Origin: Escherichia coli
Lineage (GTDB): Bacteria; Pseudomonadota; Gammaproteobacteria; Enterobacterales; Enterobacteriaceae
NCBI RefSeq assembly: GCF_016026235.1
Contig: NZ_CP065613.1
Direction: 5' to 3' (one strand)
Length of the DNA: 64,000 nucleotides
Part shown: piece by piece, positions 55,401 to 64,000 of the stretch
Position numbering within the stretch: the stretch's first letter is position 1
Layout of the letters: each line of letters opens with the position of its first letter
Made by a program: the position numbers

Positions 55401-58400
55401 CCGATCGACATTCATCATGGCCCGTATGAGTGATTAACGTTCATCCCACTCATCAGCTGCTGCGCGTCCTTCCTCGGTATCCAGCGGTGGCTCAAGCTGA
55501 AATTCCCCCTCGTCCCATTCATGTAATGTATTCTCTTCCTGCCACTCCTGGCGTATCTCTATCTCATCATAGTCGCCATCAAAAACACTTTGCGCGGCTT
55601 CACCGCTAAGCATAGGTAAACATTCACCTTCTTCCCCTTCGTCGGCAAAAAACTCAACTTGCCACATGATGTCGCCGTCCTGCAAAACGTATTTTTGGGC
55701 ATTGAACTGTTGCACATTCGCATCTTCGGCGTCGATGCCGGGGTTGTCTGCAAGAAATTCTTCGCGTGCAGCGTCAATGGCTTCTTCAAGCGTTGCGTAC
55801 ATGGTCATCACGATTCTCCCTTTGAGTTGATGAGGTTTCAGGGAAAAGGATAGCTGATTCTCCGCTTTTGCAAGTATGAAAGGCGAAAAATCAGTTCGAT
55901 ACCTGGGGTATTCGACGACGACGTAGACTGTTCCATGAATAGACTGCGTTGAATAACACTACGCCAGCGGTGACGAGAAATACCGCTCTGAAACCGTAGT
56001 TCGCTGAAATCGCTGCTCCCATCAATGGTCCGGTAACGTTGCCAATATCACGAAACGATTGGTTATAGCTGAAGATACGCCCGGCGATCTGGTTGCTCGA
56101 GTTGTAAACCAACAGTGTCTGTACGGCGGGGAGTAGTGCACCATCGGCGGCACCGAGCAAAAAACGTAAAATCCCAAGTTGCAATGGCGTCTGAACGTAA
56201 GACATTGGGATCAACAGCAGTACAGAAAAGATCAGCGCTGTAATCAGGATCTTTTCGGGTCCGATTCGATCGCCAAGTTTGCCGAGTCGTGGTGCGCTTA
56301 GCAGAGCCGCCACGCCTGGCACCGAGGCGATCATGCCACTGATAAAGGCGACGTTACTGACGTTACCCGCCAGTTCGCGGACATACAGCGTCAGAATGGG
56401 GGCAATTGAGCCTGTCGCCACCTGGATGATTAACGTGGTGACAAACAGGCTGAGTACCAGTTTCGGGTTTTTAAGTGATGTCACCACTTCCCGCATGTGC
56501 AGCATCTCTTTTTTGCTGACCGGCTGGAATTTTTCTCTGATGCAGAACAGGGTGACGAAAAAGCAGAGTATGAGCACACTGGCGGTAATAAAGAATACCG
56601 GACGTAAGCCGTAGCTATCGGCGAGCAGGCCGCCAGCCATTGGGCCGAGCAACGCACCACTAACGCCGCCTGTGGAGAGCGTACCCAGCGCCCAGCCGCT
56701 TTTATTACGCGGTACTTGTGTGGCGATAAGAGCATTAGCGTTGGGGACAAATCCGCCAAGTAACCCAAGAAGCGCCCGTAGGATCAAAAACTGCCAGATA
56801 TTTTGTGCCAGTCCCATCAACACCATCACGATGCCCATGCCGAGAGCAGAGCGTAATAGCATGAGTTTTCGGCCTTTACGGTCGGCGAGTCCACCCCAAA
56901 ACGGTGAGGCGATGGCCGAAAATAAAAATGTAATGCTGATATTTGTTCCCTAAATACACTATGAGAACATACCTGTTAATTACAGGACAATATCAGGTGA
57001 ATGACCATGCAATTTAATAGTAGATTTCCAAGTATCTAAGCAGTTTTACACAGATTCTATGCAGTATCTTACAATCCCCTACACCACCTCTAAATAACAT
57101 AACTTATTGAAATATATAGAGAATCTGTAAAGCCTCTTTTCAGGGAACTATGCAGGGTGTTAGTCGTCCCTCTCCAGACACTACATATAGTGCTATATAC
57201 AGGGCCATATAACGATATATAGATGCTTGGTCACGTGGTGTAACTATCAAGAAACTTAACGATTTCCTGCGTGAAAGTTAGAAGTGATGGCTATAGTTAC
57301 CCTCCTGAATCTTCATAGTTGATTCGGTTAGTTGGGCTTGTTATGAAGATGCTTCATCCGAATCATCTACCAACCCCTAATCAACCTCATGCGCTCTATT
57401 AACCAGTCTCATAAGGAAGTCCTTTTGAGACACTTTCAACGTAACGGTAGAATGCACCCTCAAGTAGTCTCAAAAGGTTGTTTTTGGATTATGAGACTAA
57501 CTTTTGAGACTTCTAAGGGGAACATTATGGCGATACTTGGATATTGCAGGGTGAGTACAGATGACCAATCCATCACTAACCAGCAAATGCAAATTGAAGA
57601 GGCAGGGTACAACATTGCTAAATGGTTCACTGATGAAGCTGTCAGTGGTTCTGTCAAAGCTTCTTTAAGAAACGGTTTCAGTAGTTTGTTAGCTTATGCA
57701 CGAGAAGGTGACACCGTAGTTGTGGTAGCTGTAGACCGTCTTGGACGTGACACAATTGATGTGTTATCAACGGTTAAAGCGCTACAGGCTAAAGGTGTGA
57801 CAGTTATCAGCCTTAGAGAAGGGTTTGACTTATCAAGCGCTATGGGTGAAGCAATGTTAGGCATTATGTCAACGTTGGCACAGCTTGAAAGAAGCTTGAT
57901 AGCAGAGCGTAGAAAGGCTGGTATTGAACGTGCTAAAGCTGAAGGGGTACATATGGGAAGACCTGTAAAAGCTTCTTCAGAGGCTGTACAGATGCTTATT
58001 TCACAAGGTAAAACGAGGTTGCAGATTCAGGAAGAGCTAGGAATCTCTAGAGCAACTTATTACAGACTTGCTAAATAAGTTATTAAACAGTTACATGGAT
58101 GTGACTGATATTTGGCTTTTTTGCAAAGGGGGTGCTATATCGAGAATGTACCGTACCAAGCAGCTACAGACATCTGTTAGATATTTTCGAAGATTTTTAG
58201 AAGGGGAATTTGAAGAGGGGCTACTACGATTTTATAAAAATTTTCAGATTCTGAAAAGTTACTGTACAGAATACATACAGACATCTTTAAAGTATCTATA
58301 AAGACTTTTAAGATAAAAGATAGATATCCCAGAAAGGATATCCGTTTAGAAAGCCTGTTAAGTATCTCTTAAAAGAGAGTAAACCTTGTCAATAGTGATT

Positions 58401-61400: not shown

Positions 61401-64000
61401 CCCTTCACACACCAGCAATTAAAATCCCGCTTCTCCAGATGGAAGAATGCACCAGCAGATACTGGTGATTTTGAGATTACCCATACATTTGATTACGCAT
61501 CAGAAGATGACCTTCGCAATGCAATTAAGCTGATTGAAGACTTCAATACCTCAGAAGATGTGGATGGTGACAAATATAAATCCCGTGGTAACCGCTATAA
61601 CCGTGATGATATCACTCAGGCCATAAATGCTGGTCAATCTCAGCGATACATCACAGAAAAATATGGTATTTCACGGAGACAGTATTTCTACGTTAAATCA
61701 TTGATTAATAAGGACAATTCAAAATAACCATCTAAGTAACGGTAGAATGCACTTTACAGGCAGAGTTGCACCTTAATTTGATAAATTACCTTACCAGCCA
61801 GTGCAACTCCCTCTGTAACCCGCATGGTTACTGGCCTCAGAATGGCTATTTTAAGAGGTCTGAGATGTGTTTTATAGGAAATTTAAAAATGAGCAATTAC
61901 GAATTACAGATTTTTGTTGATAACGACACCGTGACCATGCTTCAACACTTCACTGATGTAGGTATCGCAATTAATTTTGATAAATTACTAAAGCTGATGG
62001 CTGATAATGCAGAAAACATCTCTGACTTTATTCAGTCGGTGGAGTTTAACGAGCCCCGAATGATGCTACCAATTACAGACAGCAGTATGAAGCGTCTTAT
62101 TATTGAGGAAACTAACCGATACAGCGTTAGCCCTGAAAAATATCTCAAGGCGGCTGTAACAATTTTGTACGCTGACAGTATTCTGGTGACGGATTCTGTG
62201 AGGGTTCACTAATGGGTTTAATAATTGCTTGGACGTTGCTTGGCTTATTTGTTGGTTGCTGGGTGGGTAATACGGTAAATAAAAATTGATATTACCAATC
62301 TGTTAAAAAGCTGTTGACAAATAACCTTAAGCATGGCATAATTTTAATTATGGGAGAGCAATTCTCTCTTATTTCTTTCAACAATTCCATCTACGTCTAG
62401 GGATAGTTATTCTGAAAGGTGCAATGCTTTTCGTCATGGCTTATTTAGCCCGCACTAAATAGGCCATATCAAAAATCTTTGTTCATTCATTGAATCCTTT
62501 AGATGTTTTTAATTTCTTCACCTTATGAATAGCCCTTTATAAGAAATTATCTAGGGCTATTCAGTTTTTAAAAAGCATACTTGGCAAACGCTTTTAAGTC
62601 TCTTCTAAGTTTTTTGTATGGCTGTCAAGTATGCTTTTTAAAAACTGAAATACTTTAGCTTAGAAGAGGAAAAAACAATGACAAACGATTTATATTTTAA
62701 CGGTCGAAAGATTGATAGCTTCGGTGACTGGTCACCACAGACTGAACATCCGCTACATATTATTCAGCGTCAAGAGCATGACAAGCGTATTGAGCTTGAG
62801 CAAGAAATCCGAAGGTCACCAAAGGTAATTTCCTTTGTGTCCCCTGAGCCTCAAGAGATGCCTGATGTATGCAAAACTGAATCATTATTTAATCTTGAGC
62901 GTGAATATTACCCACTGCTAAAAGCACAGCGTATTAAACTAGATGATGCTTACGATGCTGTTAAGAACTTCGAAGAAACCTCGAAACCTTCAGAATATGA
63001 TATTGCTTACGAGATTAAGTCAAACCCGTTTATCTATTATGAAGGAAACTTTAATGATGGTTTTGGTACAGCGATTGAAGACGTTCCTAAAGTTCTTCAA
63101 AGTATCCCTGAAGGGTTCCGGTTAATTGATGTCAGACAAGCATTAAGGGGTTCTGGTCAATTTATTCTGATGACTGGTAAAACAGATGAAGAGATTCTTC
63201 AGTTAGCTGAAGCTAATTTGACTAAGCATTATTCCGGTAAACTGGATAAGTTAAAGCAAAAGCTTAAAAAAGAACTTGATAGCATGAAAGAACTTGTTAG
63301 TGAATATGAATCACAGAAGAAGATTGCTATGCAGGCTGATATTGAGCAGCTTACGAAGATTTCTCAGAAATATAGCAAAGCACTTTAATTATGAGGTGGT
63401 GAATGATTGATTTAACAGAACGCTATGAGCTTATTAAAGCAATTAGCGAACGATTGAAAGAACAACCCAACAAACCAAAACGAATCAAATCATCCACCTC
63501 CTCTAAGCAAAATAACAGAATCAGAAGAATCGCTAAATGGTGTCTTGATAAATTACCAAGTGATTGTCAGATTGTCGGTGAAGATGGTAATTATTATCTG
63601 GTTAGGTAAAAATTGGTTGGGTAGAAAATCTACGGGAGAGATTATCGATATTATTCGGTAGTTTCTCCCTTTTTTGTATGTGCACTACGTGAAATCTGTA
63701 AAGCTAATATCTACACTGAAAAATAGAATTTACGTACAACACGCTTAAACAAAGGTATGAGGTGAAAAAATATGAATGAGCAAATTCACAGTTGATAGTT
63801 TTATCGTTGAACTGGGCTTCAATGAGAACGTTATTAAAGGTCTGCAAAAAGTTGAAAAGGCAGCTTTGCAGTCAGCACAAAAAATTGAACGGAATTTGAA
63901 TAGAGCGTTTAAGGTCGATACCAAGCAACTTGACAGCAATTTAACGGCTTCTTTAAAGTCAATGGAGGGGAAGATTAATAAAACTTTTGACCGTCTGGAA

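Follow-up and report, generated by a model that had tools for sequence, protein, structure and literature searches.

A satellite-like island with Felix-O1-like tail genes in mdtG of Escherichia coli

Detailed knowledge of satellites that depend on strictly virulent phages comes essentially from the PLEs of Vibrio cholerae and their helper phage ICP1, to which a few marine and dairy cases can be added. PLEs are islands of about 18 kb that have the gene for a large serine recombinase at one end and a dedicated initiator that acts on iterons. Here we consider a stretch of 64,000 nucleotides from Escherichia coli (assembly GCF_016026235.1, contig NZ_CP065613.1; hereafter the window), the last ~7.1 kb of which, judging from comparison with related sequences, is the left part of a chromosomal island of ~11.6 kb that is integrated in mdtG via a large serine recombinase, the gene for which is at the far end of the island and outside the window. 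Our view, held with somewhat better than even confidence, is that the family to which this island belongs consists of PLE-like helper-dependent satellites, or anti-phage islands, that parasitise Felix-O1-like phages (Ounavirinae).

The resemblance to the PLEs includes the small size (~11.6 kb here), a terminal large serine recombinase gene that runs against almost every other gene, an initiator of its own with iterons, mostly small orphan open reading frames (ORFs), and an apparent specificity for one lineage of virulent myophages. In sequence no relation to anything PLE-specific was detected, PHROG and NCBIfam scans having named no PLE protein. The initiator of the island is phage-O-like by profile, whereas that of the PLEs is of the RepA_N type. 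Two tail-core genes, for the tape-measure protein (TMP) and the tube initiator (TI), are carried here and lacking in PLEs, nothing like the capsid scaffold TcaP and no nuclease or lysis gene could be identified, and dependence on a helper is something that we infer for the island. The hosts differ as well, being Escherichia, Shigella and Salmonella for the present family, whereas SatelliteFinder found PLEs in V. cholerae only.

With the PICI, cfPICI, P4-like and PICMI satellites the island would share an integrated, helper-dependent life style, and like them it has exchangeable replication and regulation modules. The PICMIs are small satellites of virulent phages (PMC10803314), and the same is proposed here. 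Those satellites, however, usually possess a tyrosine integrase where the island has a serine recombinase, and PHROG, NCBIfam and Pfam scans set the island apart from the PICIs, cfPICIs and P4-like elements in giving no match to AlpA, a primase-helicase, TerS, Sid/Psu/Delta or a capsid protein. The PICI and cfPICI models of SatelliteFinder treat tail genes as 'forbidden components', which places the family outside current definitions. Tail morphogenesis of the infecting phage, the likely target here, is also that of Tai in PICIs and prophages and of Tab in Pseudomonas prophages (PMC11364771, PMC10884400); these are small dedicated inhibitors, unlike the full-length TMP and TI homologues of the island.

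Integration in mdtG and structure of the family

The junction between host and island is marked in the window by two features.

55891-56939, minus strand: 3' part of mdtG, from about codon 61 to the stop (ORF list, alignment with K-12 mdtG, truncated-mdtG annotation in relatives)
56936-56965, no strand: attL, consisting of the core CTGA (56936-56939) and the element's left half-site TATTTGTTCCCTAAATACAC

The MdtG reading frame appears in the ORF list as ORF 55891-56862 on the minus strand, and in the alignment with K-12 the host identity ends at window position 56939 ('...AATGTAATGCTGA'), with foreign DNA ('TATTTGTTCCCTAAATACAC...' / 'TATTTGTTCCCTAAATACACTATGAG...') from 56940 on. The gene is broken at codon 60-61, which leaves its N-terminal ~60 codons beyond the other end of the element, and the MdtG efflux pump of this strain is inactivated by the insertion. 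The G+C content is 0.511 in the host part of the window and 0.382 in the element part. A first-pass annotation, made from the sequence alone, had seen the mdtG frame cut by AT-rich DNA near 56937 with some 55-60 codons split off, in close agreement with this result, and the comparison with an mdtG-intact genome that it had proposed places the insertion at 56939/56940, with a 4-nt overlap only.

In relatives the right end of the element reads GTGTTTAGGAACCCATTATA followed by CTGA, and the left half-site TATTTGTTCCCTAAATACAC and the right half-site GTGTTTAGGAACCCATTATA form imperfect inverted repeats. At mdtG-type junctions CTGA is the sole common sequence and the target is not duplicated past the 4-nt overlap; together with the dyad half-sites, this is the anatomy expected of attachment (att) sites of serine recombinases. 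A short core, imperfect dyad half-sites and no target duplication, the combination characteristic of large serine recombinases, were found not only at mdtG but also at a second and commoner type of site, the start codon of tonB, where the shared core is the 13-nt CAATGACCCTTGA and the element ends are CCGAATAG and CTATTCGG. The tonB-type recombinase is only 33% identical to the mdtG-type enzyme, and a third type of site is occupied in the relatives L014 and L019. In the tonB-type relatives L002, L007, L008 and L009, the 13 nt common to element and target include the ATG. The tonB coding sequence is kept in these insertions but its upstream region is element DNA, so that tonB expression may be affected.

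The far end lies outside the window, and the full structure was read from relatives in complete genomes. The best proxy, L024 (GCA_018134345.1), sits at the identical mdtG position, is intact and has a length of ~11.6 kb; up to ~61300 its identity to the window is ~90%. Its order is the mdtG 3' part, the small recombinase, the Dam methyltransferase, the rep gene, a 96-aa protein, a ribbon-helix-helix (RHH) protein, a gap, a 234-aa protein, a 710-aa TMP, a 253-aa Dit-like protein (the TI), a 509-aa large serine recombinase on the opposite strand (domains Resolvase, Recombinase and Zn_ribbon_recom), the mdtG 5' fragment and lpxL. Domain content confirms the large serine recombinase at the element end in L024, L002 and L014. 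The first-pass annotation had placed the second boundary and any structural genes outside the window, and this is borne out by the relatives, where the far-end recombinase, the rest of the TMP gene and the TI gene are found there.

Members of the family are carried by 537 of 5,426 complete E. coli genomes (~10%), which hold 651 copies, all chromosomal, at no fewer than three sites; most copies are mosaics with 80-90% identity to the query, and the mdtG left junction is present in 21 genomes. Seven members free of insertion sequences (ISs) measure 11.06-11.72 kb, with a G+C content of 0.38-0.41, and strains such as MRE162, A0 34/86 and AH50 carry intact elements. By ORF clustering of eight elements, the invariant core is made up of the RHH, 107-aa, 236-aa and 68-aa proteins, the TMP, the TI and the large serine recombinase, and the variable genes are those for the small recombinase, the Dam methyltransferase, a 142-aa protein and an HNH_3 protein as well as two alternative replication modules, one with the 311-aa initiator present in the window (the Rep-311 type) and one of a 185-aa type. 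Members with the 185-aa module have ~2 kb free of annotated genes between the recombinase/Dam end and the module; such gene-free stretches are L007 3233-5772, L008 2529-4423 and L009 3631-5660.

Among the element proteins, a PHROG scan and tblastn comparison with phage found nothing that would encode a capsid, terminase, sheath, tube or lysis protein. The sole match to a virion or packaging PHROG besides TMP and TI was weak (E 0.0027) and lay over the C-terminal helix-turn-helix (HTH) of the small recombinase. As in satellites generally, integration and replication functions are present and the genes for virion, packaging and lysis are mostly missing. 'Satellite-like' had been one of the options offered in the first-pass annotation for an integrated mobile element carrying its own initiator and iterons, and that description is supported. 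A search for RNA families gave nothing near the gathering score. Full-text searching of a library that is itself incomplete found no description of the family in the literature; the 'satellite' phages of one paper proved to be an unrelated use of the word.

Tail genes and non-coding DNA shared with Felix-O1-like phages

Three independent lines, the TMP, the TI and a segment of non-coding DNA, link the island to the Ounavirinae. The TI gene lies beyond the window, which holds the following.

63776-64000, plus strand: first 75 codons of the TMP gene (full length 682-725 aa in relatives)
58064-58400, plus strand: non-coding region resembling Felix-O1-like intergenic DNA, upstream of the methyltransferase gene

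The TMP matches phrog_4036 (E 1.3e-80) and is 30-38% identical to Felix-O1-like TMPs of similar length. Compared with the tail core of phage Bas63, the island has the same adjacent order of the gp17- and gp18-like genes, a TMP of similar length, a near-identical N-terminus (~80% over ~45 aa of gp17) and the same C-terminal docking peptide (LLSSSYPEEE, identical), but the TMP interior is divergent, the two genes are separated by terminator/promoter cassettes, and no other phage gene accompanies them. In most 50-column windows the interior is 5-34% identical to Bas63 gp17, with one stretch of ~54%, and between the elements L002 and L014 it is 24-56% identical, whereas phage TMPs from different genera keep 88-96% identity across most of alignment columns 1 to ~500. 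Cryo-electron microscopy of Bas63 has shown the last 25 residues of the TMP docked on the hub and puncturing apparatus (PMC12609058).

The TI, encoded after the TMP, matches PF21821 (Dit_like) and phrog_3721 (E 3e-128) and is 60-81% identical (74% in one comparison) to the product of the phage gene directly downstream of the TMP gene, which in Bas63 is gp18, the hexameric tube initiator (PMC12609058). One element TI is 81% identical to that of Bas63, and the TIs of Bas63 and SFPB, which represent two genera, are 79% identical; that an element TI should be nearer to Bas63 than two phage genera are to each other suggests continuing gene exchange. The TMP-TI order of the element is the adjacent gp17/gp18 order of the virulent Felix-O1-like phages, and gp17 and gp18 were the only matches when the element proteins were compared by tblastn with Bas63 and part of SFPB. 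The G+C content of Bas63 (0.390) matches that of the elements. The known Ounavirinae are virulent.

Within the non-coding region, ~80 nt (58281-58362) are 81-85% identical to a divergent intergenic region at ~79.8 kb of Bas63, including the palindrome GATATCC..GGATATC, and a CCTTGTCAA box that starts at 58384 also marks the leftward promoter regions of Bas63 at 33.5 and 79.7 kb. The ~80-nt segment was matched in 253 of 50,697 phage records, named Escherichia, Salmonella, Shigella, Citrobacter, Enterobacteria, Felixounavirus or 'Phage', with Staphylococcus phage SA1 in addition. Those records that were inspected all belong to the Ounavirinae, and no other phage group was recognised by name. A further ~200 nt (58064-58262) are ~64% identical to Bas63 71473-71671, which is part of an ORF-free repeat region of 1.6 kb (70493-72154) with dozens of degenerate CTnTTAAG-type motifs, spaced by 10-11 nt in both orientations; the region, which has no annotated function, might be an origin, a packaging site or an array of regulatory sites. 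Motifs of this type reach their peak within the element at 58001-58500 (6 per 500 nt). From sequence similarity, this phage-like DNA may be viewed as promoter mimicry. The record of 'Staphylococcus phage SA1' (GU169904.1, 147 kb) contains Felix-O1-like tail genes along with the Ounavirinae-specific non-coding segment, and looks chimeric or contaminated.

A proposed satellite of Felix-O1-like phages and the alternatives

If the family does consist of satellites of Felix-O1-like phages, then induction, excision, replication, packaging and interference might proceed along the following lines. The element would be silent in the chromosome until a phage infects and its transcription factors or RNA polymerase engage two targets, the promoter region of phage type before the methyltransferase/rep operon and a terminator-guarded late operon. 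Aided by a directionality factor, the recombinase would excise the element, and the initiator would fire the iteron origin using parts of the host or phage replisome. The element TMP, by virtue of its helper-like N-terminal ~45 residues and C-terminal hub-docking peptide, and the TI could then enter the tail assembly of the helper, and the chimeric tails would spoil the helper progeny, equip element-carrying particles, or both. The fuller proposal, that this is a new and widespread satellite family of E. coli, Shigella and Salmonella, an enterobacterial equivalent of PLE with a tail core of its own, unlike every described satellite, which senses Felix-O1-like infection by promoter mimicry and whose chimeric tails both sabotage the helper and deliver the island, is offered more tentatively, and we would put its chances a little below even.

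The copy in the window is probably no longer mobile, as an IS3-family element interrupts the TMP gene in an identical assembly. That assembly, L010 (GCA_050054195.1), is 100% identical to window 52678-64000 (11.3 kb) and runs past the window end, and its TMP ORF is broken after codon ~266 (~800 nt in) by the end of the IS3-family element, an end that looks IS911-like. In the left 7 kb contained in the window the ORFs are intact. Draft assemblies of this strain lineage all break at the IS site in the TMP gene.

A number of observations weigh against a satellite. Other mdtG-site copies are IS-damaged too, and many are degraded. An exact-match search of IMG/VR and JGI metagenome contigs for attP junctions of the tonB and mdtG types found none, and two metagenome contigs of 11.2-11.5 kb (L014 and L019), considered as free circular elements, were rejected on account of short chromosomal flanks and no terminal overlap. 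No gene for capsid remodelling or redirection of packaging was recognised. The phage-like non-coding DNA has no assigned role in the phage itself, the fold search with the 236-aa core protein gave generic coiled-coil matches only, and PADLOC reported the orphan methyltransferase and a marginal ZorA match on the TMP but otherwise no defence system. Finally, satellites almost never carry tail genes, according to the SatelliteFinder survey, and it follows that the TMP/TI pair might serve pure defence and not transfer.

This last point leads to the main rival, a mobile anti-phage defence island that is not packaged, in which the TMP and TI would act as a dominant-negative decoy in Felix-O1-like tail assembly and the recombinase and initiator would serve only for integration, maintenance or gene amplification. 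We consider this unlikely, although it accounts well for a TMP that keeps only helper-compatible termini and whose interior diverges fast between elements as opposed to the conserved phage TMPs, and it would accommodate both the lack of a recognised packaging or capsid-remodelling gene and the lack of attP in public contigs. Interference with tail assembly by proteins of islands and prophages is, moreover, an established defence strategy (PMC11364771, PMC10884400). What a decoy would not obviously need is a well-conserved full-length TI, an initiator with iterons, a size held within 11.1-11.7 kb, or the repeated swapping of recombinase and att modules between sites. The defence and satellite life styles are in any case compatible, PLE being both.

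A decayed temperate relative of the Ounavirinae, of which a partial tail module, a replication module and recombinases are left, appears improbable. Two adjacent tail genes in phage order would be expected of such a remnant, IMG/VR does place two relatives within predicted prophage regions, and individual copies are full of IS elements; yet the same compact set of genes, their ORFs intact, is met with in hundreds of genomes, bounded by precise att ends and at no fewer than three sites. The PHROG scan and tblastn against Bas63 and part of SFPB revealed no pseudogene traces of capsid, terminase, sheath, tube, baseplate-wedge or lysis genes, and a separate terminator/promoter cassette precedes each of the TMP and TI genes whereas the phage genes abut. 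The virulence of the known Ounavirinae also argues against a temperate ancestor. Least probable of all, and by our estimate very much so, is an integrated plasmid or integrative mobilisable element moving by conjugation with the phage-like genes as incidental cargo: it would explain the Rep-like initiator with iterons, the resolvase-type recombinase and the likeness in fold of the tandem-RHH core protein to the relaxosome accessory TraY, but the initiator had no tblastn match in 72,556 plasmids or 50,697 phages, none of the 651 copies is on a plasmid, scans with PHROG, NCBIfam and Pfam, none of them aimed at oriT, gave no relaxase or mobilisation match, and the phage-derived genes belong to the invariant core and are not cargo. 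The integrated plasmid or phage-plasmid that the first-pass annotation had also entertained is not upheld on the same grounds, to which the missing capsid, terminase and lysis genes can be added.

Should the family indeed be satellites of Felix-O1-like phages, about one in ten E. coli genomes would offer a tractable model for satellites of virulent phages, and the hijacking would operate via the tail core and not via the capsid or packaging motor. Felix-O1-like phages are widely used in Salmonella typing, biocontrol and therapy, and the islands could explain differences between strains in their susceptibility to these phages. Because satellite finders exclude on tail genes, such elements would be systematically missed or filed as prophage debris.

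Other genes and regulatory features of the island

The left half contains the small recombinase, the methyltransferase and the replication module.

57104-57143 (left arm) and 58249-58288 (right arm), no strand: 40-nt imperfect inverted repeats around the small-recombinase cassette, which is exchangeable
57527-58078, plus strand: small serine recombinase of resolvase/invertase type, 183 aa (phrog_125 DNA invertase, E 2.5e-57; PF00239), in only some members
58423-59085, plus strand: Dam-family N6-adenine DNA methyltransferase, 220 aa (PF05869; phrog_111; PADLOC orphan methyltransferase), in 4 of 8 members
59223-59381, no strand: 38-nt inverted-repeat pair, 79% complementary, with an 83-nt spacer, between the methyltransferase and rep genes
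59466-60401, plus strand: replication initiator-like protein, 311 aa (PHROG replication-initiation families, E 7.7e-11 to 1.5e-6)
59809-59890, plus strand: three 16-nt iterons TTACTCAGTCAGTCAA with start-to-start spacing of 44 and 22 nt, inside the rep gene
60401-60691, plus strand: 96-aa protein that travels with the rep module
60688-60873, minus strand: 61-aa ORF, annotated in relatives

In L014, L009, L021 and L022 the cassette of the small recombinase has given way to an unrelated recombinase that points the other way, and in L019 and L007 it is missing, with the flanks conserved. Hin-like inversion as the cause of the opposite orientations was dropped, as the opposite recombinases are different genes and not inverted copies. 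The initiator has an N-terminal winged HTH and an acidic C-terminal half, with a match to HTH_Crp_2 and a weak one to DnaD_N, and the origin is presumed, from the position of the iterons, to lie inside the rep gene. A terminator-like hairpin (59405-59433) follows the 38-nt inverted-repeat pair. In this half the first-pass annotation had named a resolvase-type serine recombinase, an orphan Dam-like methyltransferase and a rep gene with internal iterons, and the family matches and the three TTACTCAGTCAGTCAA copies agree with all of these; its HNH-like identity for 60401-60691 is not supported, there being no Pfam match and no similarity to the real HNH_3 gene of the family, and its placing of every gene on the plus strand holds for most of them but not for the 61-aa ORF.

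The right half, up to the TMP gene, comprises the following.

61012-61302, plus strand: tandem RHH protein, 96 aa, core (8 of 8 elements; AlphaFold2, Foldseek)
61299-61727, plus strand: 142-aa protein, variable (5 of 8 members)
61889-62212, plus strand: 107-aa protein, core (8 of 8 elements)
62212-62289, plus strand: 25-codon ORF, product a hydrophobic single-helix peptide (MGLIIAWTLLGLFVGCWVGNTVNKN); its start overlaps the 107-aa stop codon in TAATG
62314-62677, plus strand: sigma-70-type promoter and structured leader ahead of the 236-aa gene, conserved in 8 elements
62678-63388, plus strand: 236-aa protein, core, with a predicted long antiparallel coiled coil and a small alpha/beta domain
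63403-63609, plus strand: 68-aa basic protein, core, directly upstream of the TMP gene
63634-63747, plus strand: terminator-like hairpin with T run (63634-63669), then a 63-nt unit (63685-63747), before the TMP gene

The AlphaFold2 model of the RHH protein (pLDDT 83.1, pTM 0.75) shows strand-helix-helix twice, and Foldseek matched it to chains of F-plasmid relaxosome entries (probability 0.99, TM 0.56) and also to DndE and AvtR; the relaxosome chains are TraY. The predicted fold supports a tandem RHH protein, putatively DNA-binding and TraY/AvtR-like, with two units in one chain, as had been suspected from the sequence. The 142-aa ORF, for which an HTH had been suggested, had no Pfam match in a batch scan, and the 107-aa protein matched no family in PHROG, NCBIfam, PADLOC or Pfam. 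The 25-codon ORF occurs in 8 of 8 elements with variation in its amino acids, and is unannotated in RefSeq relatives.

The promoter (62314-62342) is an invariant TTGACA-17-CATAAT with a TG extension, and a hairpin follows it directly. The leader of ~335 nt contains several terminator-like hairpins (338 nt folded; minimum free energy -100.2 kcal/mol, z -7.1) and some compensatory changes, has no Rfam match, and includes a conserved stem, TCTTCTAAG/CTTAGAAGA, that adjoins the site where ribosomes would bind ahead of the 236-aa gene. The leader might act as a small RNA, as an attenuator or as a target of anti-termination. In L024 a second copy of the 63-nt unit, with 97% identity, lies between TMP and TI, so that each of these genes is preceded by its own hairpin and 63-nt unit, whereas their phage counterparts abut. 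We infer that this layout of leader and hairpins fits a late operon held off until a helper supplies a signal. The 236-aa protein evolves fast, the alleles found at its position in the family having as little as 25% identity, and the name 'transposase' given to it by PGAP is without support. It forms 3,087 clusters at 90% identity, with names from E. coli, Shigella, Salmonella and E. albertii, and only 17 representatives at 50% clustering (1.8 billion proteins).

A 17-nt repeat, GTAACGGTAGAATGCAC, with a -10-like TAGAAT occurs at 57441-57457 and 61736-61752, upstream of the small recombinase gene and of the 107-aa gene respectively, and the two copies may be co-regulated promoters or operators.

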